This document shows, in pieces, positions 271 through 20,088 of a stretch of 20,088 nucleotides of DNA. The position numbers and the translations under genes are program-made. A model generated the notes under the pieces. It was not told the DNA's origin and did no database searches. It saw nothing but the letters and a program-made list of their open reading frames with translations. The first letter of the stretch is position 1; each line of letters begins with the position of its first letter. This stretch comes from an uncultured bacterium (GTDB lineage: Bacteria; Krumholzibacteriota; Krumholzibacteriia; Krumholzibacteriales; Krumholzibacteriaceae): positions 1 through 20,088 of the forward strand of contig CBDUYR010000049.1 of assembly GCA_965371515.1 (NCBI GenBank). Reading direction: 5' to 3'.

Positions 271-2220
271 ATGAAACGTTTCAACTTCAGGAATATCATA
301 GGATTACTTATGCTTTCGGTCCTGGTCGTGCTTGTCCTGCTGCCCGCTTGCAGACAGGAACAGGATCCCCTCGACAGGAACAGGGCGCCGGAAACTTTCC
401 TCACGGTTGCTCCTCCGGAGACCACCAATGCCGAATACAGAGTCCACCTTTACTGGAATGGAGAGGACAAGGACGGCATTGTGACCCAATTCATGTGGTA
501 TCGCTCGGATACTCTGCGAACGCTCAGGCCCGATCTCGATCCTGAGCTCGAGCTGCTCGACTGGAATCCCGAGGCCAGGAAGAGCGATTATGAGGCGGGA
601 ACGTTTACCACAACTAACGACACGGTGATCGTCTTTACCGGGTTCGACATCACGACGGGTGCGATGCTCAACAGGCAGGCGTTCCACATCGTCGCCGTTG
701 ATGACGGCGGGAAGATGGATCAGACACCGGCGAGGGTTCAGTTCTTTGCAAAGGTCAACTGCATCCCCGAGGTCGATTTCTGGTACGAAAGTGAAACAAT
801 ACCATACAAGCATTACATTCCCGGAAGTATCGACACGATCAGCATGTTCGAGCCTTTCTGCGTCGCATTTGTCGGAAACACGTGCAACAACATGATCAGT
901 GGATACCAGTGGATCTACGGCGGCAGAATATATCCCGACTTCAACGGCGACGGCATTCCGGACTGGCACATTCCAACATACGATCCGCCTGAGACTGTGC
1001 AGGTATGCATGGAAAACCAGGGCGCAGCAAGGATCTCAGAGGGTGATTTCTACTTCAGGGTAACGGCGAGAGACGAGGCGGGAGCAAGATCAAGAGCCGA
1101 TATTGTAACCGGCGAGGGCGTTTTCCAGATCGTCGTCAACCATGACCCCGACACGAGGATCCTGTTCGGAGAGAGTTTTTATACAGACAAGGCGGGCAAT
1201 CCGCACGAGGAAACGATTAACTTCAGCGACGACGAACCCGATACGCTGCCGTACAACTCGAGACTGAGGATGCACTATCTCGGCTGGGACGATGCGAGAG
1301 ACAGCCTTGAATTTACAGATCCGCCGATCCCGATGAGGTTCCAGTTCAAATTCGAGCGCTGGGGATACGGCCTGAGCGGCGGCGTCTCGAGCCACAAGCC
1401 TGCCTGGATGCCTGAAAAGAAAGCGGAGGATACGAACTGTAACACCGACGAGGATTCGATGACGATGATGATCGGTCCGTACGACTATCTCTTCCTCGCC
1501 AAGTCCTTCGACGAACAGTACAGGTACGACCATACGCCCGATACTGTTTCGTTCGTGGGTAATTTCCCGCCGACTATCGACAATATATCCATCGCATACG
1601 ATTCGATACCGTCCTTGCCTGATCTGTATCTTGAGAAGATAAAGGGCGACACTGTTTTTATCGCGATCGGCATGCCGAGGGCGACCAGAGATGAGCTAGA
1701 CTACGTCCCCGCTGCCAGTAGCGAACCGGATGCGGAAAACCAGGTATGGAACCTGATCTACAGGCTCTATATAATGGGCGGAGGGCGAGACGATCACAGG
1801 GATCCACCGGGATCCGCAGTAAGGGCCTGGTGGTACTCGATCGTGGGGGAAGAGGAGGATTATTACTTCCGCGGTGAGGAAGAGTGGCTGATGGATTTTG
1901 AACCGGATACGATGATGCAGGAAATAACTTTCAGGCTCGTCGTCCCAATGGATCCGGAAACTTCCCTTCCCGATCCGGCGTTTGTCGACACTCCGCCACT
2001 CTGGATGGGAAACCAGGATCTGACCGTAATCGCATCGGACTTCCACGCCTCGTCTATCTTTATCGAGGCTATCAGGGGTAAAAGCCCCGAATTTGTCGAC
2101 AACGATCCCTGCCAGGTGCGCATCTCTGAGGGCAGCTGGATCGTCCAGGATAGGGGCGTTGCCAACTACGCCAGGATATATACGTACAACGGCTGGTTCT
2201 ACATAAAGCTGGTGTACTAG
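271..2220 (+). CDS. Large acidic lipoprotein of unknown function with repeated Ig/FN3-like beta-sandwich modules
   Basis: Long ORF. ATG 271 follows GAAGGGTG (GTG 265 is an alternative start). Signal MKRFNFRNIIGLLMLSVLVVLVLLPA-C has a lipobox. Recurrent motifs: NxxPxT...h(Y)WxGxDxDG...FxVxAxD..G..D.TP. Confidence 0.8.
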   Translation: MKRFNFRNIIGLLMLSVLVVLVLLPACRQEQDPLDRNRAPETFLTVAPPETTNAEYRVHLYWNGEDKDGIVTQFMWYRSDTLRTLRPDLDPELELLDWNPEARKSDYEAGTFTTTNDTVIVFTGFDITTGAMLNRQAFHIVAVDDGGKMDQTPARVQFFAKVNCIPEVDFWYESETIPYKHYIPGSIDTISMFEPFCVAFVGNTCNNMISGYQWIYGGRIYPDFNGDGIPDWHIPTYDPPETVQVCMENQGAARISEGDFYFRVTARDEAGARSRADIVTGEGVFQIVVNHDPDTRILFGESFYTDKAGNPHEETINFSDDEPDTLPYNSRLRMHYLGWDDARDSLEFTDPPIPMRFQFKFERWGYGLSGGVSSHKPAWMPEKKAEDTNCNTDEDSMTMMIGPYDYLFLAKSFDEQYRYDHTPDTVSFVGNFPPTIDNISIAYDSIPSLPDLYLEKIKGDTVFIAIGMPRATRDELDYVPAASSEPDAENQVWNLIYRLYIMGGGRDDHRDPPGSAVRAWWYSIVGEEEDYYFRGEEEWLMDFEPDTMMQEITFRLVVPMDPETSLPDPAFVDTPPLWMGNQDLTVIASDFHASSIFIEAIRGKSPEFVDNDPCQVRISEGSWIVQDRGVANYARIYTYNGWFYIKLVY

Positions 2221-2283
2221 GGATGATACGTGACGACCGGGCCTGAGGGTGCGATTCCCGGGTCTCAGGAGGTTGAAAGTCAA

Positions 2284-4548
2284 ATGCGAAAAACTCTGCT
2301 TTATGTGACGATTATCTCATTCCTGGCCGTGGCCGCGCTGCTGGCGGGTTGTTCTAACGGCGTCTATACGGGAGAATCGGATCAGAACGATGCTCCCGAG
2401 ATATGGCTCTCGAGCGGTCCCGTCGAGGGCGACACGACCGGATACCAGGTCCATTTCTACTGGAGTGGTTGGGATCCCGACGGGGAGATAGCGTATTTCG
2501 AATTCGTGGTGAGTGAGGGAGATCCTATCGGGTTCAATCCCGCCGATACGACGGGGATCGACAGCTGGAGCACCACCGTGGTCCATGACAGTGTTTTCCA
2601 CGTTCCCGCCGACGATCTAGTCGGAGATTGGGAAGAGGACCCTTCTTACACGCTATACGACAAGACCCATACGTTCTTCATAAGGGCGGTCGATCTGGAG
2701 GGAAAGAGATCGAAAGCGGCGCAGAGGTCATTTACAGCCTGGACCCTCGCTCCGACCGTACAGATTGATAAACCGAGCGATGCAACGACGACGTACAGCA
2801 CCGTGATTACCTTCGGATGGACCGGCACAGACCCGATCGACGGCCCTAATAACATTCAGGATCCCGATTCGATCCGCTACATGTGGTCGCAGGTCGTCGA
2901 CAAGGATGGTAATTACGACGGGACTTTCCAAATACTCAACGATCTAAACGAGAATCCCGAGGACTATGAGCATATGTGGGGTCCGTGGATCTTCTATCGA
3001 GCTGAGGGGGATTCCGGCAGGGAGACCACAATCGGCGACGACGAGATCCTCGAGCTTACCAAGAGCCATATATTTGTACTGATGGCCAAGGACGACGCGG
3101 GGGCAGTGACCGCGACGTTTGCGAAGAGTACGAACTTCAGGCAGTTTCTCGTATCGGATAAAACCGGTCCGAAACTCGTTGTGACAGAGAAATATCTCGG
3201 CAGCAACGGGTTCCAGGGAACGGACTATAACTACGTTCAGAACGATCTCCCTCCAGGTGTGCCATTGAACTTCTGGTGGGACGCAACGGCGGATGACTAT
3301 GGCGGCGAGATCCAGAGCTACAGGTACGGCTGGGATGTCCAGCAGCTGGACGATCCCTCCCAGTGGGCCGTCACAGCGAGTCCGTTCATTAAAACGGCTG
3401 AGCCGAAGACGTATTACTCGGGAATTCACAGGTTCCTGGTGGAGGTAGTCGACAACGGCCAGAAGATCACTTACGGGAAAATAGAGATCACGATCATACC
3501 GTTCTCCATGGAGAGGAATCTTCTGTGGGTCGACGATTATCCGCTCGGAGCCTTCATTCCGCAGATGACCGATCCTTCCGAAGAAGTGCACGATGCATTC
3601 TGGATAGACATATGCGGGAAGACACCTGATTTCATTCCTGACAGGGACATCTACGATGTATCGTCGCAGAATAAAAGGCCGCCCGAGATGAGGCAGATCG
3701 GGCAGTATGCTAACATCATCTGGACGTACAGCTCGTCGATCAACACGGCTTGGCGCAAGCTGATTCCGTTCACTCCGGAGACAATGGCCGGGGAGGGAGT
3801 TACGCTCACGGTCAATTACTTGTCACTATACCTCGCAAAGGGCGGGCACCTGCTTACGTCGGGCAGGGCCGACAGGTCAGGAGGATTGGTAGACGCGTTC
3901 CTTTCGGCACCGCTGCTTCCCGCATCGTTCAAGGACGAGATGTCGACTATCGATCCCGAAGATACAAGCGGAGTCAACTCGATGCCGTACAAGGACTACT
4001 GCGTCAGAGTGGTCGACAAAGTCTTGGGTCAGTTCTACGCCGGCGACGAGATGGCGCCGGGTTATACCCGGTCTATTGAAAGGGATGTCCTGAGGTATAT
4101 GTTCAAGGAGACCGGTGTCAGTGGAGAAGGCGGAATAGTGGATTATCCAGGCTTTCCCGATACGCTGAATCTCGATGAAATAGTGACGTGTCCTACCTGT
4201 TTCTTCAATCTGCAGAATCCGGTTCCGGGGGGATTCACTTACGTAGAGGTGTATGATCCGGAGTACTGGATGGTATTCAAGGATATAGTCGATTCGCAGA
4301 ACTGTTTCAGGCCGATGTACAGGATGGTTGCGCGCTCGACGATTTCGCCGCTCGACCAGCAGACGATCGCCTTAATTATCAATAAGTACAGAATAAGCTT
4401 CGAGGATGATATCGCGGCCGGCAAGCCGGTCACCATTCATCCGGCGGACAGCTTCCATTTCGGGTTTCCTTTGTGGTTCTTTGAACACGACAAGGTCTAT
4501 CAGATCATGGACGAAATATTTGCCGAGTGGCAAATTCTGGATGAATAG
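2284..4548 (+). CDS. Large acidic lipoprotein, related to the upstream gene; Ig/FN3-like repeats plus a C-terminal alpha/beta domain
   Basis: AGGAGG at 2267-2272 precedes ATG 2284. Lipobox LAGC. N-terminal module NDAPEIWLSSGP...VHFYWSGWDPDG matches NRAPETFLTVAP...VHLYWNGEDKDG of the upstream gene. C-terminal LLWVDD...YANIIW...YLAKGGHLLTSG pattern. Confidence 0.8.
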   Translation: MRKTLLYVTIISFLAVAALLAGCSNGVYTGESDQNDAPEIWLSSGPVEGDTTGYQVHFYWSGWDPDGEIAYFEFVVSEGDPIGFNPADTTGIDSWSTTVVHDSVFHVPADDLVGDWEEDPSYTLYDKTHTFFIRAVDLEGKRSKAAQRSFTAWTLAPTVQIDKPSDATTTYSTVITFGWTGTDPIDGPNNIQDPDSIRYMWSQVVDKDGNYDGTFQILNDLNENPEDYEHMWGPWIFYRAEGDSGRETTIGDDEILELTKSHIFVLMAKDDAGAVTATFAKSTNFRQFLVSDKTGPKLVVTEKYLGSNGFQGTDYNYVQNDLPPGVPLNFWWDATADDYGGEIQSYRYGWDVQQLDDPSQWAVTASPFIKTAEPKTYYSGIHRFLVEVVDNGQKITYGKIEITIIPFSMERNLLWVDDYPLGAFIPQMTDPSEEVHDAFWIDICGKTPDFIPDRDIYDVSSQNKRPPEMRQIGQYANIIWTYSSSINTAWRKLIPFTPETMAGEGVTLTVNYLSLYLAKGGHLLTSGRADRSGGLVDAFLSAPLLPASFKDEMSTIDPEDTSGVNSMPYKDYCVRVVDKVLGQFYAGDEMAPGYTRSIERDVLRYMFKETGVSGEGGIVDYPGFPDTLNLDEIVTCPTCFFNLQNPVPGGFTYVEVYDPEYWMVFKDIVDSQNCFRPMYRMVARSTISPLDQQTIALIINKYRISFEDDIAAGKPVTIHPADSFHFGFPLWFFEHDKVYQIMDEIFAEWQILDE

Positions 4549-4593
4549 AATACACGACCGATCGCCCTTTCCCGGGGATGATAAGGAGGAGTA

Positions 4594-5928
4594 GTGATTT
4601 CCATTCGTTGGGTCAGAATTTTCTTGTTATTTGCAGTTCTGGCTACCGGTATGTGTGGGTCAGCGAGGGCTCAGAGCGAGATAGATACGATGGTGCTCGT
4701 GCCACAGGCACCCGATTCGTTTTATGTGGAGAGGAGGGGTTCGGATATCGTCATTGGCTGGTATCCTCCTCCTGACAGCACCGGTAAGGTGATAGGCTCG
4801 AGGGACTATACGAACTGGTACGGAGAGCACACTGCCGGCGACGGGGTCGAGATCTCCTTCTCAGGATTCTATGCCAACGGCTGGGTCGACAGACAGGTCC
4901 TCATCGAGAAAATGAACCGGGATTCGCACGAGGTCGGTGTATCGCCCAGCATCCCGATAAGTATATCCTCGGTCGACATGTTTGACAGGACGTACCAGAA
5001 GATCGTCAACATCGGCACCGACAGCTACACGCCGGGAGACCCTATCCCGATGACACTGGTCCAGATCGGTCTGCCTCCCGGCGAGGAGCCCGATGTACTC
5101 GAGTTCGGTTTCGAGGTCCATTTCAGCACGGGGCTCATAGATACGAGTCAGTACGGGCAGGCCGCCGCGTTTTTACTCGATGTCCAGGATTTCGAGGGAT
5201 TCCACGTATGGCGGGGGCTGTCGCCGTATCCGAGCGACCAGCAGGCAATTGTCGAGATTTCGAAAGAAGATTACTTCAAGGTTTCTATCATCGATGCTAT
5301 CGAGGACGTTCCATTGAAGTGGAGGTGGCTGTGGGAGTATTTCAACGACAATATCGAACCAGCCTGGCCGCGGCAGGACGATAATGGCCACTGGTATTAC
5401 GAGTGGGTCGACGGGAATGCCTACAGCGGATTCACCTACTATTACAACGTGACGACGTTTGACAGGGGATATTTCAGGGGGTTCAATACACACAACAAGG
5501 AGGATAACTTCGTCTGTGACGAGGACCTCGACAATCCCGTGACGCCGGGGAATCCTGTGGACTGCGATAGTATGGGCATAGCGTTCGAGATGACGGTCAG
5601 CGCCGGATCGGATATGGGCAAGATATACGCTGTTCCCAATCCGTACCGTACGGGGACCTCTGAAGAGACGACGCCGTACTATCACAACTATCCCGACAGG
5701 ATGATCAAGTTCTTCAACGTGCCGCGTGAGGCTCAGATCAAGATTTTCACCGTTTCGGGGGACCTCATATGGGAGGGGTCGCATTACAGCGCCGACGGCA
5801 GCGACGGAATTGTAAACTGGAACGTGAAGAACAAGAAAGGCCAGGATGTGAGTTCGGGCGTTTACGTATTCAGGGTGGAATCGGCCAACGGGGACGATAT
5901 GTACGGCAGGATAGTGGTGATTCGCTGA
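4594..5928 (+). CDS. Secreted protein with an FN3-like region and a C-terminal FlgD-Ig/T9SS-CTD-like domain
   Basis: AAGGAGGA RBS before GTG 4594. Sec signal ends ARA-Q. FN3-like pattern DFEGFHVWR...WVD...GFTYYYNVTTFD. C-terminus IYAVPNPY...IKIFTVSGDLI...WNVKNKKGQDVSSGVYVFRV...IVVIR. Confidence 0.8.
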   Translation: MISIRWVRIFLLFAVLATGMCGSARAQSEIDTMVLVPQAPDSFYVERRGSDIVIGWYPPPDSTGKVIGSRDYTNWYGEHTAGDGVEISFSGFYANGWVDRQVLIEKMNRDSHEVGVSPSIPISISSVDMFDRTYQKIVNIGTDSYTPGDPIPMTLVQIGLPPGEEPDVLEFGFEVHFSTGLIDTSQYGQAAAFLLDVQDFEGFHVWRGLSPYPSDQQAIVEISKEDYFKVSIIDAIEDVPLKWRWLWEYFNDNIEPAWPRQDDNGHWYYEWVDGNAYSGFTYYYNVTTFDRGYFRGFNTHNKEDNFVCDEDLDNPVTPGNPVDCDSMGIAFEMTVSAGSDMGKIYAVPNPYRTGTSEETTPYYHNYPDRMIKFFNVPREAQIKIFTVSGDLIWEGSHYSADGSDGIVNWNVKNKKGQDVSSGVYVFRVESANGDDMYGRIVVIR

Positions 5929-5985: not shown

Positions 5986-6102
5986 CGGGTGGATGGGCAG
6001 GTTGAGGGCGAAAGCTGTGAGGGGGTTGACATGGCAACGTCTTTCGTTCAGAATCCTGTCCGGAACGATTCGACGAAGCCATTGGACCGACAGGTGGTGA
6101 TC

Positions 6103-7023
6103 ATGCTCAGGACTAACAAGCAGTATCTGGTAGAGAAGGCCGTTTCCGGAAAAGTGTCGAATCCAAGGATTCCGCTGAAGAATCCGTGGCTGATCGATCC
6201 CGGCGGAGAGCCGCACGTGATGCCCGGCACGGGGGGGATCACGTACAACGTGTCGGTCGGGGATTCAGCTCTGGATTTCGTCGGTGACCATATCGAGCCG
6301 GGGGTCAGTGTGACCCTGAAGACATCAGATGCGGAGAGAAGTGTGCTCGGTGGACTCAGTATACTCACATGCGTCGGGAACGAGGCAAGGGTCATGTCGG
6401 GTCAGGTCGCTGGCGCAAGGGGCGTGGTGACTGGCAAGCACGGCGGTGTGGAGCACGTGATCATAGATTTCTCGCGTGCAACACTCGACAAACTTGCGAT
6501 AGGGGATACGATCCAGATCAGGGCATTCGGCCAGGGGCTCGAGCTAAGGGATTTCCCCGAGGTGCATATGATGAACATCGATCCGGGACTTCTCGGAAAG
6601 CTTGGCATCACCACCCGGAACAAGCAGATGGTTGTTCCTGTTACACACGTCATACCAGCCTCGATCATGGGGTCGGGGCTCGGGTCGAGGCACAGTTACA
6701 GCGGGGACTATGATATACAGCTCGGAGAGAAGGAATCGATAAGAAAGTTCGGACTGCAGAACCTGAGGATCGGCGACATCATTGCGATAAACGACGCCGA
6801 CTGCAGGTTCGGAAGATCGATGAGGTCGGGTGCGATGAGTATCGGCGTAGTCGTCCACGGAGCGTGTATAACGAGCGGGCACGGCCCGGGTGTGACCGTT
6901 CTGATGACCACGACGAGAAAGCTCATAGTTCCCAGGATAGAGGAGGGCGCGAACCTCTCAGTCTACTTTGGCACAGGCAGGGAGAAGAAGAGCGGGCGCC
7001 CGCGCAGCAGGAGAAAGCACTGA
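6103..7023 (+). CDS. DUF4438 family protein (TM_1086-like)
   Basis: Recognisable family motifs MLRTNK..LV...V.G, PGTGGITYNV.VGD, DHIEPGVS, CVGNEA, VTGKHGGVEHV, MGSGLG, GDYDI, GHGPGVT. Start placed at ATG 6103 after GGTGG rather than at the ORF-track start 5989. Confidence 0.85.
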   Translation: MLRTNKQYLVEKAVSGKVSNPRIPLKNPWLIDPGGEPHVMPGTGGITYNVSVGDSALDFVGDHIEPGVSVTLKTSDAERSVLGGLSILTCVGNEARVMSGQVAGARGVVTGKHGGVEHVIIDFSRATLDKLAIGDTIQIRAFGQGLELRDFPEVHMMNIDPGLLGKLGITTRNKQMVVPVTHVIPASIMGSGLGSRHSYSGDYDIQLGEKESIRKFGLQNLRIGDIIAINDADCRFGRSMRSGAMSIGVVVHGACITSGHGPGVTVLMTTTRKLIVPRIEEGANLSVYFGTGREKKSGRPRSRRKH

Positions 7024-7041
7024 CGAAGGAGGTACGAGTCG

Positions 7042-7587
7042 ATGCCCCAGTGGAATAAGATACTGCCGGAACTGGACTGGATCGCCGACGGCGATCTCAG
7101 GGATCTCGTTGAGAAGGTGTGGGAGGACGCTTTCCGGTTGGGAGGATGGGATGAGGAAGATCTCGATGCGATCCCGTTCACACTTCTCGTTCAGGACGCC
7201 GACATCAACCTTTTTGACCATACGAGGATCGTGACACATCTGTGCAGGCAGATTGCAGGACCGCTGAAGGAGATGCAGGGTCTCGACATAAACGACGATT
7301 ATCTCATAGCCGGCGCCCTTCTGCACGATGTTGGGAAATTGCTCGAGTACGGCAAAAAAGGCGGAGAGATCGCCGTAGCGAGGAACGGGAGGATGCTGCG
7401 TCACCCTCTTTCCGGGATGGGCCTCGCTGTGAAGTGGGATCTCCCCGAGGATGTCAGCCATATAATCGCTGTTCACTCGCGCGAGGGGGAGAGGTCGTAC
7501 CGGAGCCCCGAGGCGATCATCCTGCATCACGCCGATTTCATCATGTTCGAATCGTTCAAGAGCAGGAAAGAATTCCCCGACATCTGA
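7042..7587 (+). CDS. HD-domain metal-dependent phosphohydrolase
   Basis: AAGGAGG RBS. Motifs H(TRIV)...LLHDVGK...RHPLSG...AVHS...HHAD. Confidence 0.88.
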   Translation: MPQWNKILPELDWIADGDLRDLVEKVWEDAFRLGGWDEEDLDAIPFTLLVQDADINLFDHTRIVTHLCRQIAGPLKEMQGLDINDDYLIAGALLHDVGKLLEYGKKGGEIAVARNGRMLRHPLSGMGLAVKWDLPEDVSHIIAVHSREGERSYRSPEAIILHHADFIMFESFKSRKEFPDI

Positions 7588-7597
7588 CAGGGGAGCG

Positions 7598-9304
7598 ATG
7601 CGCATATACAAAAGGCTCGCCGCGGGATTGCTCATCTTAGTCGCCGCTGTGGCGCTCCCGGTCCCGGACCGGAACCCGGGATATGCCGGCAGTCGCGCCG
7701 AATGCGGGAGTGTCTGTGAGATCGTTCCCGTATGGATATTCTTTGACGTGCCGCCCGACGACAGCTCGGCATCTTCGCCTGAAGCCCTCGCCAGGATCTT
7801 GAAGCGGGGGGCGCCGCGTGAAAGGTCCGTCCGGCTGCACCCTCCCGCGCAAAGCTCAATAGACTGCGTCAGGCCTTTCGTCGAGCGAATAAGGCAGAGG
7901 TCGTCGTATTTCAACGCCGTAAGCGCCGATGTGAGGGTGGAAATGATACGGCGGATCATCGAACTGCCCTGCGTTGGGAAGGTCGATGCGGTAAGGATTT
8001 ACAGAAGGGCACGGGAACCTCTTCTTCCGGATAAGGAGAGAATGCCGCTGCACGCTCCGGCTTCCCCTATGATCGGAAAGTACGGCGACAGTTTCAATCA
8101 GCTCTACATGATCGAAGCAGTGGATCTCCTTGAGATGGGGTACAACGGTTCGGGTGATTCGAGCTCAGCCGGCCAGATCATGATAGGAGTCCTCGACACA
8201 GGATTCCTTCTCGACCATTACGCCTTCGACAGGCTCGACGTCCACGCTCAGTGGGATTTTGTGAACGATGATCCCGTGACCGAGAACGAGCCGGGGGATC
8301 CTCTCGACCAGGACAAACATGGGACACTCGTTTTGGGTACGATCGCGGGATACGGCGAGGGGTACCTGATCGGGCCGGCATGGGGAGCGGCCTTCCTCCT
8401 CGCTAAGACCGAGATATATGACGAGGAGATAGAGGTGGAAGAGGACAACTGGGTCGCCGGGCTGGAGTGGTGCGACAGCATAGGCGCCGACATCGTGACG
8501 AGCTCACTCGGTTACATAAAATGGTACGATTCCGATTCCCTCGACGGGGAGACGGCCCTGTGCACCAGGGCGGCGAACAGGGCTGTCTCGAGGGGCATAG
8601 TCGTCTGCAACGCCGCGGGCAACTACGGCTGGGACGGGCCGACGTCGCTGATAGCCCCGGCGGATGCGGACAGTGTAATCGCTGTAGGCGGGGTCTACGG
8701 CGACGGGAGTTTCTGGGCATCGAGTTCGAGAGGCCCGACGGCCGATGGGAGGATCAAACCCGATGTGATGGCTCAGGCGGTTTCGGTCCAGAGTGTCCTT
8801 TACCCCGTGGATTACGGGTACTGGAAGTACAGCGGCACTTCCTTTTCGACTCCCCTGGTGGCGGGATTATGTGCGCAGCTCCTCGAGATACATCCCGACT
8901 GGACCCCCATGCAGCTGAAGGATTCCCTGCTCGTTCACGCGACGAACAGCGATTCTCCCGATAACGACTTCGGCTGGGGTATCGTCAAGGGACTGGCGAC
9001 GGCGGGAATCTCCCCGGACGGCGCAGCGGGCGTATCGTTCTCGAACGGGTATCCCAATCCATTCGGGGACTCCGTCGCGTTCGACATTTATTCCGACAGG
9101 TGGACGTACGTCTCGGCACGGATCTACGACAGCTCGGGCCGTCTGGTCAGAATGCTTCTCGCCGAGGAGCCGTTCCTCTTCGGGGGAACCGTGGAGTGGG
9201 ACGGGACCAATGACGGCGGCAGACAGGCGGCAAGCGGCGTTTACTTCGTCGAGTTCATATCACCGCAGGCGAGACAAACGATGAAGGTCGTCAGGATCAG
9301 ATAG
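7598..9304 (+). CDS. Secreted subtilisin-like S8 serine peptidase with a C-terminal FlgD-Ig/T9SS-CTD-like domain
   Basis: Signal peptide and propeptide (VWIFF...YFNAVS). Catalytic triad motifs LDTG, HGT and GTSFSTP, oxyanion AAGN, and SSRGPTADGRIKPDV. C-terminus YPNPF...IYDSSGRLVR...WDGTNDGGRQAASGVYFV...KVVRIR. Confidence 0.93.
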   Translation: MRIYKRLAAGLLILVAAVALPVPDRNPGYAGSRAECGSVCEIVPVWIFFDVPPDDSSASSPEALARILKRGAPRERSVRLHPPAQSSIDCVRPFVERIRQRSSYFNAVSADVRVEMIRRIIELPCVGKVDAVRIYRRAREPLLPDKERMPLHAPASPMIGKYGDSFNQLYMIEAVDLLEMGYNGSGDSSSAGQIMIGVLDTGFLLDHYAFDRLDVHAQWDFVNDDPVTENEPGDPLDQDKHGTLVLGTIAGYGEGYLIGPAWGAAFLLAKTEIYDEEIEVEEDNWVAGLEWCDSIGADIVTSSLGYIKWYDSDSLDGETALCTRAANRAVSRGIVVCNAAGNYGWDGPTSLIAPADADSVIAVGGVYGDGSFWASSSRGPTADGRIKPDVMAQAVSVQSVLYPVDYGYWKYSGTSFSTPLVAGLCAQLLEIHPDWTPMQLKDSLLVHATNSDSPDNDFGWGIVKGLATAGISPDGAAGVSFSNGYPNPFGDSVAFDIYSDRWTYVSARIYDSSGRLVRMLLAEEPFLFGGTVEWDGTNDGGRQAASGVYFVEFISPQARQTMKVVRIR

Positions 9305-12250: not shown

Positions 12251-13000
12251 CTGAGGAGATCGATCCTCGTCTTCCTCGCGGTGAGCGCTGCCGTGCTGGC
12301 CGCATGTGCCGTAGCCCTGGCCGCGACTGGAAGGGGGAGCCTCGCCGTCGTCCTGATCCTGTGGACCGTTCCGGTAATCGGGGCGCTTACGATCTTTTCC
12401 CTGAGAAACACACACCTCTTCCGCAGACCGGACGGGAGCGAGGTCTGCCGGTTCGAGGCGGCCAACGTGCTGACAGCCGTGAGGATTATCCTCGTGCCGC
12501 CGGTCATAGTCCTCCTCAATCACGGATATGTGATGCACGGCGCGATCCTCTGGCTGACCGCCGAGCTGACGGACGTCGCCGATGGCTTCGTCGCGCGCAG
12601 GTTCAGGCAGGAGACCGATTTCGGCCTGATGATAGATCCTGTCGGTGATATCATGGCCACGATAGTCGTTTTTACCTGGCTTTTCCTTGGTGGAAGGGTT
12701 CCATCCTGGCTGTTTGCCCTTCTTGTCGCGAGGTACGTGCAGTTCTTCGCCGGGATCGCCATACTGTCCCTGACGGGCAGGCTGCCGAAACTTCATGCTA
12801 CGCTTGCTGGAAAGGCGGCTGGAGTGGTGCAGGGCGCGATAATAATGTTTCTGTTGCTGCGGGCCGCCCTCGGCGATCCCCCGCAGCTCGAGTCGTTCGA
12901 TAATATCCTTTTCCCGGTTCTGGGAGCGGCGTTCCTTTCCGTAATTGTTTCGCAGACGGCGATAGGCCTGAGGGCGGTAAGGAATCACGACGCTAACTGA
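12251..13000 (+). CDS. CDP-alcohol phosphatidyltransferase family membrane protein (PgsA/Cls-like); start uncertain
   Basis: ANVLTAVR and the signature DVADGFVARR...FGLMIDPVGD; several hydrophobic segments. The hydrophobic N-terminus LRRSILVFLAV extends upstream of GTG 12281 to CTG 12251 (see findings). Confidence 0.85.
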   Translation: MRRSILVFLAVSAAVLAACAVALAATGRGSLAVVLILWTVPVIGALTIFSLRNTHLFRRPDGSEVCRFEAANVLTAVRIILVPPVIVLLNHGYVMHGAILWLTAELTDVADGFVARRFRQETDFGLMIDPVGDIMATIVVFTWLFLGGRVPSWLFALLVARYVQFFAGIAILSLTGRLPKLHATLAGKAAGVVQGAIIMFLLLRAALGDPPQLESFDNILFPVLGAAFLSVIVSQTAIGLRAVRNHDAN

Positions 13001-13013
13001 CAGGAGGTAGAAG

Positions 13014-13505
13014 ATGGACCTGGGCGGGAACCTTGCAGTGATGGAACCATCGATGATATTCCAGGTAACGGGTCTCTGCGGCCTGACGGGGAAGATGAAG
13101 CTCATAACGATAGACAACGTGGCGAGCTTCTGGTTCAAGGAGGGCGGGCTCCTCTTTGCGACGATTGACACGGGAAAGAAGAAAATAGGCGAGTTCCTCA
13201 TCGAAAACGAAATGATATCGGAGGAACAACTCGACGAGGCACTCGATGAGATGCAGAGGGAGTACGGAAAGAGGAGGATAGGCAATATCCTCATAGACAG
13301 CGGATATCTCGACTACGAGACTCTCGAGAAGGCGATACAAGAACAGATAAAGGAAGTGGTCTACGAGGTGCTTCCGTGGAAGAAGGGACAGTTCGTATTC
13401 TTCTCGAGTGTGGAGCCCGAGCACGAAGACATACTACTCGATATCAGGATGGACCATCTCATACTGGAGGGGCTGAAACGTATCGACGAGGCAGCCAGGG
13501 ATTGA
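13014..13505 (+). CDS. DUF4388 (PatA-N-like) domain protein with tandem MshEN-like motifs
   Basis: AGGAGG RBS. DUF4388 pattern L.GNL.....IFQ......TG.......FKEG...A...W..GQFVF...LILEGLKRIDE, with internal KIGEFLI... and RIGNILIDSG... repeats. Confidence 0.8.
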   Translation: MDLGGNLAVMEPSMIFQVTGLCGLTGKMKLITIDNVASFWFKEGGLLFATIDTGKKKIGEFLIENEMISEEQLDEALDEMQREYGKRRIGNILIDSGYLDYETLEKAIQEQIKEVVYEVLPWKKGQFVFFSSVEPEHEDILLDIRMDHLILEGLKRIDEAARD

Positions 13506-14440
13506 AAGTGTCCCGAAACATCCGGCAGAAACCGAAGATCTTGCTGCGGCTGGCAATCGCGGCCGCTGCGCTTACTATTCTTTCCGGCGCCGCTTCCGGC
13601 GAAAAGCCGGAACGGTTCGACGGAACAATATCATCGACAAGATCGATGGCCCTGGGCGGGGCCTTCTCTCCCCTCGCGGACGATATTACGGCACTGTTCG
13701 TCAACCCTGCCGGTCTGCTCAACACGGGCGGTGTTGCCCTTTACGCCGATTATATGGAGACAGCCGGCGGATCGGGCCCGTGGGAAGGTAAGCTCGCCGG
13801 AGGCTTCGAGCGATGGGGTATCGTCTTCGCCGCCGCAGGATCTGGAAAGAGTTACGACGACGGTGTCGCAGAGGGCCAGTTGTCGGTGGGGTTCGCGCTG
13901 AATGTGCTGTCGGGCACGGCCGGATCGTTCATATCGCTCGGCGGCGCCCTGAGGGCGGGGCACGTTGCGTTCGACCTCGAGGACCCGTGTATTCCGTGCG
14001 GTGTTCCCGGCGGGAGATATTCGTACAATGCGCTGACCGCAGATCTGGGCGTAATGATAAGGCCGCTTCCATTTATATCACTCTCGGCATCAACTGAAAA
14101 CATATCGGAAACCGGATTCGGATCGGGGGATTATTATATCCCGTGGGACAGGACCGTGCGTTACGGGGCTGCCTGGCTGCACGAGGACAGGTTCACGATC
14201 TCCTGGGAGCGAAGGCAGACGGGGGACCGGGAGACCGATCATTTCGGTTTCGGTCTCAGGACGGCCCTTCCTCTCGAGCTAATGGCGGGAATTACCTCGA
14301 ATCGGGTTCACGGAGGCGCGAGATGGGACGGAGGAAGGTGGAGGGGGGCGATCGTCTTCGGGCAGGAGGCAGAGAACGTCATCACGACGGGCGCGTCGAT
14401 CGAGATCTTCTTCAACAGGCCGGCGAGGATCTATCAGTGA
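13502..14440 (+). CDS. PorV/PorQ/FadL-like outer-membrane beta-barrel protein
   Basis: TTG start overlaps the previous stop (TTGA); GTG 13508 is an alternative. Signal peptide, then the family N-terminal motif RSMALGGAFSPLADDITALFVNPAGL. Later ADLGVMIRP...S.S.ENI and amphipathic beta strands. Confidence 0.75.
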   Translation: MKVSRNIRQKPKILLRLAIAAAALTILSGAASGEKPERFDGTISSTRSMALGGAFSPLADDITALFVNPAGLLNTGGVALYADYMETAGGSGPWEGKLAGGFERWGIVFAAAGSGKSYDDGVAEGQLSVGFALNVLSGTAGSFISLGGALRAGHVAFDLEDPCIPCGVPGGRYSYNALTADLGVMIRPLPFISLSASTENISETGFGSGDYYIPWDRTVRYGAAWLHEDRFTISWERRQTGDRETDHFGFGLRTALPLELMAGITSNRVHGGARWDGGRWRGAIVFGQEAENVITTGASIEIFFNRPARIYQ

Positions 14441-15966
14441 ACCGGATGAATCGCATATTTATTTTTTCAGCACTGTCCCTGGCGCTGTTCGCCCGGCTGG
14501 GCGTGCCCGGACGTGCGATATGCGGTGAAAACGATGCTTCACCCGACTCCTCAGGGAGTTACCGGTGGGGTGGAGTATACACGAGTCTGATAAGGCTGGA
14601 GGAAAACGCCGGATATTTCCCGTGGAACGATCTTGCGAGGGCATCGTTTCTGACTGATCGCGTCTCCCTGATGTTCGACGCTCCATTCGCGAAACATTTC
14701 CATTTCTTTATTAAAGGGACCACGGGGCTCTGGAGCCGGGATGATGATATCTACTCGAGCCGGTTTTTCATCGACCAGGGTCATCTCTCCGCCACATGGC
14801 GCGACCGCGTTACGGGAAAGCTCTTCCTCAGGGAGCGGGTATTCCGCAACCGGAACAGGCTGATGTATCTCGTTTCGAACGACTCGCAGCTTATCCGGCG
14901 ACGCGGCGAGGGATTCGATGTCGCGGTCCTGACTGCGGGTCCGGTCCTGCTGACATATACCGGCGCTGTCTTCAGGGACCGCTGGGAACAGAAGCAGAAT
15001 GGCGGACTGCCTCCTCTGCCGTTTCAAGGTGAATTTCTCAACCTCTTCGAAGGAGGGATCGACCGCAGTTCATGGCACGCCGGCCTGACGCTCGCGGACA
15101 TGAGATCGACATGGACAAGCTGGGGCTTCTCAGTGCTCTACGGACTGGACGGCGGATTCGGCCTGGCGGACGGCAGGATCAACATCGAGTTCGCGAGGTC
15201 TGCGCGCAGGTGGGACGACTTTGAAGGCGGACTGTTTGGCCTCGATTTCGATGCAATGAAATGGGGCAGCTTCAGCGCTGGTCTTCCCTCCGACGGCACA
15301 CTGGCCGCGGAGTGGACGGGATTCGCATGGAACGCAGGGGATAAGGGCAAGTTCGGCCTGACTCCAGGCTACCGTTACTCCGGAGATGCATTTATAGACG
15401 TAATCGGCGAAGTGTCTCACGGATATGTGGAGAGCTATGTCGAGATGTGGTGGAAGCACGCGAAGCTCGCCTCGCTCGTTTCGCTGAAGGCGGCGGACAG
15501 GTATGACTACGACACGGGGGAGGGCGGCGGTCTCCTCGAGACATCTCTCTGGACTAGATTTAGAGGGGGCCTCGAGACAACGGCCAGGGCCTTCTTCGCT
15601 GAGGGCAGCCGGCCTGTGCTGATTATCTCTACCGTCGATGACAACAGCCTCACGCGTCTGCTTACAACGGCGAGGATCGACGACACGGGAGGAAAGAGCG
15701 AGTTCTCGTTCCTCACAGAAGCCGGCATCAATCTGGGAAGGAGATGGACGCTCGGAGGCACCGTTTATCTCGAGCGTTCCATTGCAGGATTCTATTCCGC
15801 AGACATCGAGATGAGAGGCGGGAAGAGGTTCGTATTCAGGGCTTCAGCGGGCACTTACATCCCCGTTTCGACATATGCCGATCTCAACTATGACCCCGTT
15901 CCACCGGTGACCAGGAGAGACAGGGCCGTCTCGTTCTATACGAGGATCTGGCTCGGAGGGATATAG
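14437..15966 (+). CDS. Putative outer-membrane beta-barrel protein of unknown function
   Basis: GTG overlaps the upstream stop (GTGA); ATG 14446 is an alternative. Signal-peptide-like MNRIFIFSALSLALFA. Many Gly/aromatic-rich alternating strands; ends AVSFYTRIWLGGI. Confidence 0.65.
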   Translation: MNRMNRIFIFSALSLALFARLGVPGRAICGENDASPDSSGSYRWGGVYTSLIRLEENAGYFPWNDLARASFLTDRVSLMFDAPFAKHFHFFIKGTTGLWSRDDDIYSSRFFIDQGHLSATWRDRVTGKLFLRERVFRNRNRLMYLVSNDSQLIRRRGEGFDVAVLTAGPVLLTYTGAVFRDRWEQKQNGGLPPLPFQGEFLNLFEGGIDRSSWHAGLTLADMRSTWTSWGFSVLYGLDGGFGLADGRINIEFARSARRWDDFEGGLFGLDFDAMKWGSFSAGLPSDGTLAAEWTGFAWNAGDKGKFGLTPGYRYSGDAFIDVIGEVSHGYVESYVEMWWKHAKLASLVSLKAADRYDYDTGEGGGLLETSLWTRFRGGLETTARAFFAEGSRPVLIISTVDDNSLTRLLTTARIDDTGGKSEFSFLTEAGINLGRRWTLGGTVYLERSIAGFYSADIEMRGGKRFVFRASAGTYIPVSTYADLNYDPVPPVTRRDRAVSFYTRIWLGGI

Positions 15967-15969
15967 AAG

Positions 15970-17907
15970 GTGAGCCGTTTCGAATCTGCAATTCTGTTCC
16001 TTATCTGCGCGGTGGCGATATCGCAGGCCGTGCCGGTATCGGTATACGCCGCAATCGAGGTCGATGATGAGGAGGTCATCTTCCGCTTCGAGCATCCCGG
16101 TGCGGCGAAGGTATACCTTGCCGGCGATTTCAACAACTGGAACCCGACGATGGACGGCATGGTGAAGAGGGGTGGGGCCTGGGAGGTCAGGCTCTATCTC
16201 GTTCCCGGCAGATACAGGTACATGTTCGTCGTTGACGGGGAGAACTTCCCTGACCCGGACAATCTGAACAGGGACAAGGACGGCAACACCTTCTTCATAT
16301 TCGTCGAGGAGGATGGTGTCTACGATATCATCTATGAGGTCACCGATGCGGGTGAGCGGAAGATCGACGAGATATACACACCGTACGGAGCGCTGACCGC
16401 GGATGCCGTGGGAGATTATGGCCTCTTTACGGTTTCCGCGGGAGTGGACGGCGAGATCGACGGATCCCTGCGCGGCAACATCCTCATCGGAGCAGAGTAC
16501 GAGACGACGGCGGAAGACCCTGTAAAAGCATACCTTGTCAGGGCAAAGGGCGAGTGGGTAACGGATAAGTTCAGGCTCGGCGCCTTCCACAGGTCGGGCA
16601 GGATCGGTTTCGACGATCCGCTGTCTCTGTTCACCGATGTCGGCCCGTACGCCTACCCGCTCGACCTCTTCTGCAGGGGCGCCGAGGCGTCGGCGGGGTG
16701 GAAGAACTCGTTCGAGGGCCGCGTCTTCTTCGCGAACAGGATTGACGGGTACGAATCGGGGTTGGAGCGACACGCATACAATTCGTTGTTTGACGGGAAT
16801 CCGGAAGATAAAGATATGATAGGGACATCACTCAAGGGTTCATTCAAGTCGGTGATTCTGGAGTACATGTACAGGTACGATCGTGGGCCGGGAGAAAGGC
16901 TATGGCGGGACTATTCGGTGAATGGATACGAAACGAGATCATCGCACGGTCTCCTGTTCGAGTTCGGCAAGAAGGATGGTCCCAGGATTACTGCTGAATA
17001 TCTCACCGGCCTGACAAAGTTCAACGCTATTCATTTCACGTTTCCTCCCTTCCCGGATCCGATAGAACAGGTAACCGATTACGATACTGAATTTGAGAAA
17101 GGAAACAGAGCTCTTGTCGAGGTCTCCTGGTCGCGGGGACCGTTCATCGGGCTGCTGGGATGGCACCGGACGACCATTGAACGGAATGCTGAACTTCTGA
17201 GGCCTGATTACTGGGACGATGCGAAGATGGATCTATTCGATGCCGATGTGAAATATGAGACGGAGAGGATGAAGATCGGCCTGAAGGTCAACATGCTGGA
17301 TTTCGACGGTTCGGGGGGGATGGGAAGGACCTTCTGGCTGCAGGGCTCGAATTTCTGGCTCGACGGCGACATGCTGCGGACCGAGCTTCTCCAGTTCCTC
17401 GATTCGAAGAGGATGTGGAGAGCCTCCCTGAACATCGTAGAGGGCGGGGTAGAGGAGATACCCGGCCCATATCGCCTGGAGGGCTTTTTATCGGCGAAAG
17501 GTAACTGGGATAGCGACGCAGCGAGGAGCATGTTCGAGATATCGGGGGGGAAGGGCATCCGTGCGGGGTCGTTCCTCTCCCTCCACGCGGACCTGAGGTA
17601 TGTCTCTTACAGTGACGACCGCTGGGTCGGCGATGACAGTTTCTTCGACTTCTGGGCAGGGCTTCGCGGCACGCTCGGTGGATCGGGCTGGGCCGCGTTG
17701 GGAATAGGCGTCGCCCCGCACGGGTTCGACAGATGGCTTTTCGATTTCACTGACGACGGAAGGGAGGGCTACCTTCTCGATCAGGGAATTTTCATGGAGG
17801 TGGATCGCTTTGGAGGAGAAGACTCTCTCGTTGAATCACTCGGAGAGGCGGAGAAGAAGCTCTCCGAGGAGTGGAGATTGAGCTTTGAAGCGGGATTCAC
17901 CTTCTGA
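15970..17907 (+). CDS. Outer-membrane protein: N-terminal CBM48/AMPK-beta-type glycogen-binding domain fused to a putative beta-barrel
   Basis: Signal peptide ending VYA-A. CBM48 pattern VIFRF...AAKVYLAGDFNNWN...W...L.LVPGRYRYMFVVDG...DPDN. The rest is amphipathic strands ending in the canonical beta-signal WRLSFEAGFTF. Confidence 0.8.
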   Translation: MSRFESAILFLICAVAISQAVPVSVYAAIEVDDEEVIFRFEHPGAAKVYLAGDFNNWNPTMDGMVKRGGAWEVRLYLVPGRYRYMFVVDGENFPDPDNLNRDKDGNTFFIFVEEDGVYDIIYEVTDAGERKIDEIYTPYGALTADAVGDYGLFTVSAGVDGEIDGSLRGNILIGAEYETTAEDPVKAYLVRAKGEWVTDKFRLGAFHRSGRIGFDDPLSLFTDVGPYAYPLDLFCRGAEASAGWKNSFEGRVFFANRIDGYESGLERHAYNSLFDGNPEDKDMIGTSLKGSFKSVILEYMYRYDRGPGERLWRDYSVNGYETRSSHGLLFEFGKKDGPRITAEYLTGLTKFNAIHFTFPPFPDPIEQVTDYDTEFEKGNRALVEVSWSRGPFIGLLGWHRTTIERNAELLRPDYWDDAKMDLFDADVKYETERMKIGLKVNMLDFDGSGGMGRTFWLQGSNFWLDGDMLRTELLQFLDSKRMWRASLNIVEGGVEEIPGPYRLEGFLSAKGNWDSDAARSMFEISGGKGIRAGSFLSLHADLRYVSYSDDRWVGDDSFFDFWAGLRGTLGGSGWAALGIGVAPHGFDRWLFDFTDDGREGYLLDQGIFMEVDRFGGEDSLVESLGEAEKKLSEEWRLSFEAGFTF

Positions 17908-17937
17908 TAGAATCGGTTGCACGGAGGATCGACCGAA

Positions 17938-18324
17938 GTGATTGAGAAATATATAGCGTTCATTGCTGCTTCTGCGCTGCTCCTGGCGACCGGTTCCTGC
18001 AGCTATATAGATAAAGCGGTCGAATCTCCGGTGCTGAAGGAGGGAACGGTAGAATTCAGGTATCCGTCCCACTCGGCGAAGACGGTCCAGGTTGCCGGTG
18101 ACTGGAACAACTGGAGTGCGGGAGATGCCGAACAGGGCGAGGTGCTCGTCGGCTTGATGGAGAAGGACAAGAAGGGCGTCTGGAACCTGACGCAGGAACT
18201 GCCGCCGGGCAGGTACCGTTACTACTTTTTATTGAACGAGACTCAGAGGATCCTAGACCCCGCCAATCCCAGAGTCGCGGACGATCCATGGGGAGGGAAG
18301 GCAAATCTGCTGATAGTGCCGTAA
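17938..18324 (+). CDS. Small lipoprotein consisting of a CBM48/glycogen-binding domain
   Basis: GGAGG at 17923-17927 before GTG 17938. Signal ...LLLATGS-C. Domain VEFRY...AKTVQVAGDWNNW...GVWNLTQELPPGRYRYYF...DPANP...DDPWGG. Confidence 0.85.
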   Translation: MIEKYIAFIAASALLLATGSCSYIDKAVESPVLKEGTVEFRYPSHSAKTVQVAGDWNNWSAGDAEQGEVLVGLMEKDKKGVWNLTQELPPGRYRYYFLLNETQRILDPANPRVADDPWGGKANLLIVP

Positions 18325-18326
18325 TC

Positions 18327-18713
18327 ATGAGAAAATACAGAACGATCGTGATCCTGATCCTTGCCGCGGCGGCGATGAGCTCAGCCGGGTGCGGCGTCGC
18401 GGGAGGCCCGACCGGAAGCGTGGAGCCGACCGCCGGGCCCCAGATCACACCGGAGGGAGTGAGGTTCTCCCTCTACTCTACGAAGATCAAGAAGGTCAAT
18501 ATAGCAGGAAGCTTCAATAACTGGTCGATGACAGCCGATCCGCTCTACGACCGTGACGGATCGGGGATGTGGAAGATCGTACTGCCTCTTCCGCCGGGAA
18601 GGTACGAGTACAAGTTCATAATCAACGGCAAGGAATGGATACCCGATCCGGCAAATCCAACGACGACCGATGACGGTTTCGGCGGATACAACTCGGTGAT
18701 ATCGGTCGAGTGA
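18327..18713 (+). CDS. Small lipoprotein consisting of a CBM48/glycogen-binding domain
   Basis: ATG 2 nt after the previous stop. Lipobox SAG-C. Domain GVRFSL...KVNIAGSFNNWS...GMWKIVLPLPPGRYEYKFIINGKEWIPDPANP...DGFGGYNSVI. Confidence 0.88.
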   Translation: MRKYRTIVILILAAAAMSSAGCGVAGGPTGSVEPTAGPQITPEGVRFSLYSTKIKKVNIAGSFNNWSMTADPLYDRDGSGMWKIVLPLPPGRYEYKFIINGKEWIPDPANPTTTDDGFGGYNSVISVE

Positions 18714-19087: not shown

Positions 19088-20088
19088 ATGTCCGGACCAA
19101 TTCATAAGGCTTCCGCTGGAAAACCGGCTCATACGCCGGGGAAAAGGGTCCTGAAGGGGCTTCTGCTCGCAGTCTGCCTCCTTCCGGGAATTCTCTTTTC
19201 TACGGCGGCACATGCCCAGCCCGGCAGCGGCGCGGCCGTCATATCACCGGCATCTGATGTCCCGGCCGGCTCCTCAGGGACCTGGACGATAACATATACC
19301 ACCACCACATCAAATTTCTCGACCGGGGTCGTTACGCTTGCCATCCCCTCGGGATGGACGACTCCCCAGATATTATCGAGTTCCTCTCCAGGTTTCGTCA
19401 CGGCGTTGACGACAGACGGCGTCCTGAACGTCACACCGATAGACATAACCTCGAACGTCATCACGATTAATGTCGATACCCTGTCGATCGGCGAGACGAT
19501 CGACATCGTCTATGGAGCCGGAACCGGTCCGGCTGATGCTCAGACGCTCGCCGAATCGGACGTCGAATTCATAGTGGAGTCCGCTCCTCTCGGCGCCGCA
19601 CCATCGAATATAGCTTCTTCACCGACACTGAATGTCGTGGCGGCGGCTGTCTCGAAGCTCGTCTTCGGAACGAGCGCAAGGACTGTAGCGACTGACGGCG
19701 AGAGCCAGGTCATGAGGGTCCAGGCACAGGACGAGTTCGACAATCCTTCTGCGGCAGGATCGAATCAGGATGTGTCTCTTTCATCCACATCGGGTGCGGG
19801 AACATTTTCCCATCTTCCCGAAGGAAGCTGGAGCGAGACGACCACCGTCACGATACAGGCGGGAGAGGATACGGTCTCGTTCTACTACAGGGATACATCG
19901 CCGGGTATCTACAGCATAACCGCGTCCGCGGACGGTCAGACCTGGACCGACGCTGAGCAGGCGGTCACGGTCGAAGCGGGAGATCCGGCAAAACTGGTGA
20001 TCTCGCCGGTGGATACTACAATCACGGCCGGCGAATACGGCCGGTACATCCTGCGCTCGGTCGATATCCACGATAATCCCAGCGCTCC
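19088..20088 (+). CDS. Large secreted Ig-like (invasin/Big-type) repeat surface protein, truncated by the window end
   Basis: Hand translation from ATG 19088 (in-frame TGA at 19082) stays open to the end of the window. Signal ...KRVLKGLLLAVCLLPGILFSTAAHA-Q. Ser/Thr/Val-rich, with repeats SKLVF...VQAQDEFDNP and AKLVI...RSVDIHDNP. Absent from the ORF track, presumably because it has no stop in the window. Confidence 0.8.
   Translation, partial: MSGPIHKASAGKPAHTPGKRVLKGLLLAVCLLPGILFSTAAHAQPGSGAAVISPASDVPAGSSGTWTITYTTTTSNFSTGVVTLAIPSGWTTPQILSSSSPGFVTALTTDGVLNVTPIDITSNVITINVDTLSIGETIDIVYGAGTGPADAQTLAESDVEFIVESAPLGAAPSNIASSPTLNVVAAAVSKLVFGTSARTVATDGESQVMRVQAQDEFDNPSAAGSNQDVSLSSTSGAGTFSHLPEGSWSETTTVTIQAGEDTVSFYYRDTSPGIYSITASADGQTWTDAEQAVTVEAGDPAKLVISPVDTTITAGEYGRYILRSVDIHDNPSA

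Follow-up and report, generated by a model that had tools for sequence, protein, structure and literature searches.

Entry of alpha-glucans into Gram-negative bacteria has been characterised for two outer-membrane systems. In the maltose system, LamB, an 18-stranded open trimer, is combined with MalE-MalFGK2, and in the Sus system, the SusC/SusD pair is accompanied by SusE, SusF and SusG. How starch fragments pass the outer membrane without LamB or SusCD is an open question for much of the uncultured FCB (Fibrobacterota, Chlorobiota, Bacteroidota) group. Here, we analyzed a stretch of 20,088 nucleotides (in the following, the window; contig CBDUYR010000049.1, positions 1 to 20,088 of the forward strand, GenBank assembly GCA_965371515.1) from an uncultured bacterium of the Krumholzibacteriaceae, which carries a cassette of five genes, A to E, for outer-membrane proteins and lipoproteins, three of which contain a carbohydrate-binding module of family 48 (CBM48). 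Cassettes of this family occur in two genomic contexts, termed type M, which is found beside maltodextrin uptake or glucan hydrolase genes, and type P, which is not and to which the window cassette belongs. Type M is likely to be a maltodextrin entry system, and we give a probability of roughly 45% to the reading that the window copy is a repurposed surface gate, with E still binding alpha-glucan, that probably does not feed starch catabolism. The split into P and M cassettes is the contribution of the present analysis; the family is real, and what we infer is its function. As judged from sequence, the barrel family and its CBM48-plugged architecture are apparently undescribed. No description of the cassette, of the P/M paralogue split or of the co-distributed protein P0180 (see below) was found in the literature covered, i.e., open papers, with subscription journals mostly outside, and the term CBM48 does not occur in the available parts of a 2026 review of glycoside transporters (PMC13543919).

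The window corresponds to contig C49 of an assembly of 3.08 Mb in 171 contigs (99.6% complete). All five open reading frames of the cassette lie on the same strand, between positions 13502 and 18713:

13502-14440, + strand: A, 312 amino acids (aa), PorV/PorP-like outer-membrane protein
14437-15966, + strand: B, 509 aa, predicted 24-stranded outer-membrane barrel with no plug domain within B
15970-17907, + strand: C, 645 aa, N-terminal CBM48 followed by a predicted 22-stranded barrel, terminal residue Phe
17938-18324, + strand: D, 128 aa, CBM48-fold lipoprotein with a family-specific loop insertion
18327-18713, + strand: E, 128 aa, CBM48 lipoprotein

An earlier note on this DNA, made from its letters alone, had described a tight array of five exported-protein genes, and this was confirmed: A and B overlap by 4 nt, and the gaps between B and C, C and D, and D and E amount to 3, 30 and 2 nt, respectively. 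A gene for a DUF4388 protein overlaps the start of A by a further 4 nt, and the operon probably starts there, one gene before A. A gene order that varies among relatives had been named by the earlier note as refuting its reading; DUF4388-A-B-C-D-E is conserved at all loci compared (20/20), which represent three Krumholzibacteriales families, and B is present in all 46 genomes of the order (46/46). Signal peptides and lipoboxes in the A to E region were judged by eye; the lipobox cysteine of D occurs in 39 of 39 rows of the D alignment, which was trimmed to begin at this residue. A scan for promoters and terminators gave a result at chance level. Among the Pfam matches for A to E, no TonB-receptor, plug or hydrolase family is listed, in line with what the note had seen, and the three CBM48 modules it had proposed, in C, D and E, all score above the cut-off of Pfam AMPK1_CBM (42.6, 31.3 and 48.9 bits, respectively; cut-off 26.8) and also pass that of CBM_48.

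Predicted twin barrels, plugs and sugar sites

The earlier note had counted three barrels. B and C indeed fold as barrels in AlphaFold2 models, whereas for A the evidence is a weak similarity to the PorV family. The model of B (predicted local distance difference test score, pLDDT, 83.8; predicted template modelling score 0.76) consists of the barrel only, all 509 aa, with 24 strands by our own count; the turns that lead from even- to odd-numbered strands are short (2-5 aa) and share one face, and the loops of the opposite face are mostly long. In the model of C (pLDDT 78.7), the CBM48 module precedes a barrel of 22 strands, again by our own count. Pfam gives no match for either A or B at E <= 0.1, and broad profiles of B and of the C barrel gave no match to PDB sequences at E <= 1, which is in line with the proposal that the large barrels stand outside the characterised transporter families. 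At the level of the fold, B is most similar to the PapC usher (Z 17.7, root-mean-square deviation (rmsd) 6.5, 362 residues aligned, 10% identity), and the C barrel (residues 107-618) aligns along its full length with TonB-dependent barrels of 22 strands, porins scoring equally well (with 5t3r_D, Z 15.2, rmsd 4.7, 369 residues aligned, 11% identity). Among the folds listed by Foldseek and VIA only generic barrels appear, with TM-scores that do not exceed 0.57 for B or 0.37 for C.

Compared by HHalign with broad alignments, B and the C barrel match over 415 columns (94%, E 1.5e-7) and are, by this profile evidence, distant paralogues. A comparison of narrow profiles (1.2%) had not revealed this relationship. 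Similarly, a single-sequence search had placed B and C exclusively within the order (0 of 15 outside genomes), which reflected a limit of sensitivity: the broad profile finds outside copies, 109 of the 155 Krumholzibacteriota genomes having a C-type barrel. A profile of the C barrel alone returned 155 representatives, and among the 150 listed, every protein of at least 600 aa (91/91) has an N-terminal CBM48.

Prediction of a complex of B and D yielded a score of 0.88, the best of three controls reaching 0.34. Solved complexes attain the mark used for this score in 116 of 157 cases and mismatched pairs in 2 of 215; these figures are approximate here, since author-made alignments were used. The runs for B and D have at least 82% of their contacts in common, with a partner pLDDT of at least 85. 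In the model, D has contacts with 19 of the 24 strands of B and, in addition, with four of its short turns and two of its long loops. The N-terminal tether of D is located where strand 14 turns into strand 15, a turn that is read as periplasmic; the residue of D that is equivalent to W100 of AMPK beta (see below) is absent from the contacts. The model supports binding without demonstrating it, and D is predicted to plug B from the periplasm in an arrangement that, in the model, is LptE-like. As C is paralogous to B, its barrel may be closed by its own CBM48.

The likeness to LptD-LptE is one of architecture only, a very large barrel with a small lipoprotein predicted inside. There is no sequence similarity and no match to LptD or LptE in Pfam or NCBIfam, D has a CBM48 fold, and LptDE has 26 strands and a beta-jellyroll, whereas the model of B has 24 strands and no beta-jellyroll. 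The PapC/FimD ushers have 24 strands like the model of B and include its best fold match, but B lacks the built-in plug and the periplasmic N- and C-terminal domains, and no usher, chaperone or pilin family is listed in the window. SusC and other TonB-dependent barrels share the predicted number of 22 strands with C, but not the 24 of B; the N-terminal domain of C is a CBM48, no Plug family is listed for it, and at 11% identity there is no profile match. LamB differs as well, since neither B nor C matches PF02264 and both models combine their 24 and 22 strands with a predicted plug.

The CBM48 modules of the cassette differ in their sugar sites. E aligns with the AMPK beta CBM (E 1e-10), in which W100, K126, W133 and N150 are described as critical residues in the available text of one study (PMC4032982), and the substitutions W100G and K126Q are each stated to abolish glycogen binding in that of another (PMC6274970). 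In contrast to AMPK beta, the modules of the cassette are exported and either lipid-anchored or fused to a barrel. At the four positions, E of the window carries W, K, W and N, the sole complete AMPK-beta-type site in the cassette, whereas C (W, M, N, N) has lost the equivalents of K126 and W133, and D (W, Y, R, A) lacks three and retains the W100 equivalent alone. Of the three CBM48s for which the earlier note had proposed alpha-glucan binding, E alone thus has a complete ligand site, and those of C and D are degenerate. The same pattern was found in 19 type P cassettes of the order: W100, K126, W133 and N150 are conserved in 19, 17, 17 and 19 E proteins, but in 19, 1, 0 and 12 C proteins and in 19, 1, 6 and 0 D proteins. 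In type M, all four ligand residues are intact in both C and D (15/15 loci). In type P cassettes from more distant families, E has a complete site in 10 of 10, and K and N of D are gone in all scored; by sequence, the sugar sites of these cassettes appear intermediate between type M and type P of the own order. As a separate gene, E was seen in type P cassettes only. Two CBM48 domains are present in D of family f8 (L092, L114-L116) and in some C proteins of family f4 (L113, L122), and it may be the second of these modules that type P encodes separately as E.

Cassettes inside and outside starch loci

Across 20 loci that belong to other families of the same class, the cassette has X-A-B-C-D as its core, in which X, directly upstream of A, is a protein with an FlgD/CHU_C-like C-terminal domain as known from type IX secretion (T9SS). 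Two layouts can be distinguished. In type M, X, A', B', C' and D' stand beside genes for MalE/F/G/K, a GH13 enzyme with several CBM48 modules, GH57 or a GH133-like enzyme, and X is either short (about 380 aa) or long (1,700-2,040 aa), the long form containing a Glucodextran_C domain. In type P, the order is ppdK-(CDP-alcohol transferase)-DUF4388-(X)-A-B-C-D-(E), usually followed by a giant adhesin gene; the window cassette is of this type.

A scan with B' of type M identified 76 loci, including records labelled Cloacimonadota, Neomarinimicrobiota and Eisenbacteria. MalEFG or GH13, GH57 or GH133-like hydrolases are encoded at 58 of these, among them all loci of at least 18 kb (35/35), and the remaining 18 are all shorter than 14 kb. 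Within 34 type P loci of 13.5-20 kb, no MalEFG or glucan hydrolase gene was found (0/34). The survey of synteny and co-occurrence suggested by the earlier note thus gave a divided answer: GH13 and MalEFG track type M cassettes and are missing from the type P loci. At several loci labelled Cloacimonadota or Marinimicrobia, malE-F, malG, X, A, B, C, D and a GH13 gene are co-oriented. MalE-MalF appears to form a single open frame in type M loci with these labels (L175-L186).

Within the order, counts were taken over 33 genomes of at least 85% completeness and are descriptive, since kin are not independent. Type P is present in 33 of 33 and type M in 11 of 33. A GH13 match occurs in 11 of 11 genomes with type M versus 3 of the 22 others, and a MalE-type binding protein in 10 of 11 versus 3 of 22. 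Type P, by comparison, is kept in all 33 genomes regardless of MalE (13/33) or GH13 (14/33). As LamB (PF02264) was found in 0 and SusD (PF07980) in 1 of 128 genomes of the phylum, type M is likely a new entry route for maltodextrins. Being co-located with malE/F/G/K and GH13 genes, it fills the slot that LamB occupies in the maltose system, whereas type P has no malEFG nearby. With Sus, as summarized in the accessible parts of the review, type M has in common that each locus provides a barrel, alpha-glucan-binding lipoproteins and surface enzymes (PMC13543919). The family differs from Sus in its two paralogous barrels, in the inner-membrane uptake by MalEFGK in relatives and in that no enzyme stands beside the window copy.

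The cassette family is a concrete candidate for starch-fragment entry that is open to testing, given its small soluble CBM48 plugs and the B-D pair. For annotation, a CBM48-barrel cassette predicts starch use only as type M: all Krumholzibacteriales genomes searched have type P, but two thirds of them have no starch locus, so that reading type P as a starch system would mis-assign diet.

The two types also differ in divergence. In five genomes with both copies, identity between genera is 25-35% for B of type P versus 62-79% for B' of type M, 25-41% versus 53-76% for A and A', and 56-62% versus 72-81% for D and D'; for the C barrel it is 26-35% (P) versus 36-44% (M), and for PPDK 68-73%. The gap could stem from relaxed constraint on type P, but equally from a lateral spread of type M. 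In a tree of 39 C rows (quick method), type P of the own order forms one clade (support 100), as does type M of families f1, f2, f4 and f8 (100). Type M of family f7 groups with type P of family f5 (86), and deep nodes and branching order are unresolved, so that P and M are labels of context rather than proven clades. Of 34 aromatic columns of type M B, 11 are retained in type P of the own order, a value from an alignment at 13-17% identity and hence not relied on.

The window copy: surface gate or importer

The proposed explanation starts from type M as the ancestral form, in which a T9SS-exported, PorP-anchored surface cargo together with secreted amylases would present maltodextrins, which would then cross the CBM48-gated barrels to MalE-MalFGK. 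Type P would have kept this architecture, with the CBM48 of C and D serving as structural plugs. D, tethered at the periplasmic turns of B, would fill the lumen of B as LptE fills LptD, and E would capture alpha-glucan for a function at the surface or in adhesion that is tied to the upstream receptor for cyclic di-GMP (c-di-GMP) and to the downstream giant adhesin. If true, a barrel gated by a carbohydrate-binding module would constitute a new transport architecture. A wider generalization is somewhat more doubtful: the cassettes may represent a third class of outer-membrane glycan channel, made of twin barrels of 22 and 24 strands in which a CBM, fused in cis or supplied in trans as a lipoprotein, acts as plug and substrate sensor in place of a TonB plug. 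After duplication, M would have become the maltodextrin gate of several uncultured diderm phyla and P a fixed envelope machine of the Krumholzibacteriales, with structural plugs, one glucan sensor and a link to c-di-GMP-controlled adhesion. The earlier idea of a multi-barrel complex for capture or import of alpha-glucan is accordingly retained for the family, in view of the type M loci with MalEFG(K), GH13, GH57 and GH133-like genes and intact ligand residues. For the window copy, import is disfavored by its type P context, by the lack of a MalE or GH13 match in the genome and by the degenerate sites of C and D.

Several observations weigh against the surface-gate reading or the steps that lead to it. 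A plant CBM in which K126 and N150 are lost and both tryptophans are present still bound starch, according to the accessible part of that report (PMC4032982), so that the degenerate sites of C and D need not be dead, and in distant type P cassettes all 14 C modules retain K and 10 of the 14 retain W133. Conservation at the predicted interface is little raised on B (0.54 versus 0.47) and not raised on D (0.69 versus 0.72), and the B-D score may in part reflect a likeness to LptDE or to usher plugs. The high identity among type M cassettes could result from lateral transfer instead of stronger constraint. Type M is present in four of the five congeners of the window genome, and its absence from an assembly of 171 contigs could be a gap; yet 22 of the 33 genomes are in the same state. 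The link to the adhesin may be chromosomal inertia, because ppdK and other unrelated genes are equally syntenic and the adhesin has a PorP gene of its own.

A search of the window genome found no GH13, MalE-type protein, LamB, SusD (PF07980, 0), type M barrel or X domain. It does encode three GH57 enzymes, a phosphorylase and a glycogen-synthase domain, a set consistent with internal glycogen turnover, as well as one MFS_2 protein above the cut-off and a PTS IID-like gene near one of the GH57 genes. On these genes rests an alternative that we regard as unlikely, in which the window copy is still an importer of alpha-glucan oligomers: E would bind, the barrels would pass the oligomers, and an unrecognised carrier of the MFS or PTS type would deliver them to cytoplasmic GH57 and phosphorylase. 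The conservation of the E site across orders agrees with this, and so does the finding that f7 cassettes, which lie within glucan loci, have the same short X as distant type P cassettes and are placed with f5 type P in the C tree (86). However, besides the missing GH13 and MalE, two of the GH57 domains begin so early, at residues 8 and 10, that a signal peptide would not fit before them, and they look like enzymes of glycogen turnover; genomes that use starch possess a second, dedicated cassette.

A further argument for import is a secreted protein, P0180 (L101:9382-12063, G000:C41), which shares the distribution of type P. This protein of 893 aa has a GH63/MGH1-like helical domain, an Ig-like middle part, a C-terminal CBM48 and, by eye, a signal peptide. 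It was detected in every one of the 33 genomes of the order (33/33) and throughout families f5 (5/5), f6 (16/16) and f9 (9/9), versus 0 of 11 in f7, 1 of 10 in f8 (weak) and 0 of 71 in f4, and its six families are those in which the type P cassette is found. P0180 is a candidate periplasmic partner of type P, but its helical domain has no invariant acidic residue and is therefore likely inactive, which speaks against import. In an RpoB tree of 25 rows (quick method), the families carrying P0180 are close to each other, so that the co-distribution with type P may be a single evolutionary event. A descent of P0180 from the GDE enzyme of family f7 received no support (HHalign 0.2%). In another contig, a ParA/MinD-type ATPase is fused to a C-terminal CBM48 (L102:3517-4602, G000:C95).

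Gene A, flanking genes and the surface setting

T9SS type B substrates have been linked to genes for PorP/SprF-like shuttles, as stated in the available parts of two studies (PMC12618676, PMC9143113), and the adjacency of X and A in relatives is alike. A itself matches PorV_fam weakly (E 0.006-0.009, 16 bits versus a cut-off of 90). The shuttles of the PorP/SprF or PorV families have a 14-stranded barrel fold. PorV_fam is matched at E <= 0.01 by 13 of 21 homologues of A, the best at 4.5e-8, one type M homologue matches PorP_SprF below the cut-off, and a profile of A against PDB sequences gave a single, irrelevant match. The X domain is encoded at 13 of 14 distant type P loci and at 0 of 20 loci of the own order. 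By this comparison, A is the probable anchor of a pair of cargo and anchor; the window copy has retained A but lacks the cargo gene. Differences to the described type B pairs are that A lies far under the family cut-offs, that type P of the own order has no cargo and that the known pairs are not linked to twin barrels. The window genome contains 11 further PorV/PorP-like genes. That A anchors the adhesin was considered and dropped, because the adhesin has its own PorP-TPR gene.

Further upstream, at positions 265-5928, the window encodes two large lipoproteins, of 651 and 772 aa, that belong to no known family. A third protein from this region, of 444 aa, has a CHU_C-like tail but is not followed by a PorP gene, and may be an orphan cargo of A. 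These genes are kept upstream of ppdK in most loci of the own order.

The cassette is flanked by two genes:

13014-13505, + strand: DUF4388 protein with an MshEN-type c-di-GMP-binding motif (Pfam and NF053729)
19088-20088, + strand: 5' part of a giant adhesin-like gene with Ig repeats, truncated by the contig end (from its translation and homologues)

The DUF4388 protein scores 86.9 bits with Pfam DUF4388 and 53.8 bits with the c-di-GMP motif model NF053729 (cut-off 38), and its gene is directly upstream of A in 20 of 20 loci of the own order. ppdK precedes the cassette at 34 of 34 type P loci and the giant adhesin gene follows it at 30 of 34. In relatives, the adhesin comprises 4,382-4,560 aa with Ig repeats and a T9SS tail, and is followed by a PorP-TPR gene and a SpoIIE/STAS regulator; in one relative, Big_1/Invasin_D3 was matched in the adhesin and PorP_SprF in the next gene. 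Contig C29 of the window genome (L216:1-6313) opens with a matching adhesin tail, the PorP-TPR gene and a partner-switch regulator of about 1,400 aa with HATPase, SpoIIE and STAS domains, the adhesin gene apparently being split between the two contigs. The putative adhesin is regarded as a linked neighbour of the cassette.

These neighbours bear on a second alternative, in which type P has lost any role with glycans and serves as an usher-like or T9SS-accessory-like platform for export or assembly of the adhesin or of surface lipoproteins, with the CBM48s as Ig-like plugs. The adhesin, c-di-GMP receptor and SpoIIE/STAS genes around the cassette, the PorV/PorP-like A, the degenerate sites of C and D and the 24-stranded usher pore as best fold match of B are all in agreement with such a role. 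We nevertheless consider it even less probable than import, since the sugar site of E is complete, the fold similarity to ushers is of a generic kind (10% identity, rmsd 6.5), the Pfam matches include neither an usher nor a chaperone or pilin family, and the adhesin comes with its own PorP gene. In addition, the genome contains a separate SprA-like open frame of 2,196 aa above the Pfam cut-off (L125, G000:C1:39098-40363), i.e., a T9SS-type translocon in Krumholzibacteriota, and for this reason B and C were also dropped as the main T9SS translocon.

The position of ppdK upstream of the type P cassettes leads to a third alternative, an export or display of a self-made alpha-glucan coat that is coupled to gluconeogenesis (ppdK) and c-di-GMP. 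The genome has the glycogen synthase domain, a GH57 branching enzyme and the phosphorylase, and DUF6029 (PF19494), which is among the look-alikes of B (Atlas feature score 0.96), has been suggested to secrete polysaccharide in the accessible part of one study (PMC9603273). DUF6029 is a lead only, however, as B is without any Pfam match. Genes of glycogen metabolism are widespread among bacteria, and the window showed no recognisable gene for an inner-membrane exporter, an OPX protein or a co-polymerase; such a coat appears improbable, and the repurposed surface gate with E as glucan-binding module remains the preferred reading.

Other genes of the window, at positions 5989-9304 and 12281-13000, are patchily kept around ppdK in relatives; their products are a DUF4438 protein, an HD-domain protein, an S8 protease that ends in a T9SS tail, and a CDP-alcohol phosphatidyltransferase. 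At one locus of family f5 (L098:5719-8388), a DUF362 protein with an intein and a LAGLIDADG endonuclease is encoded directly downstream of the cassette.

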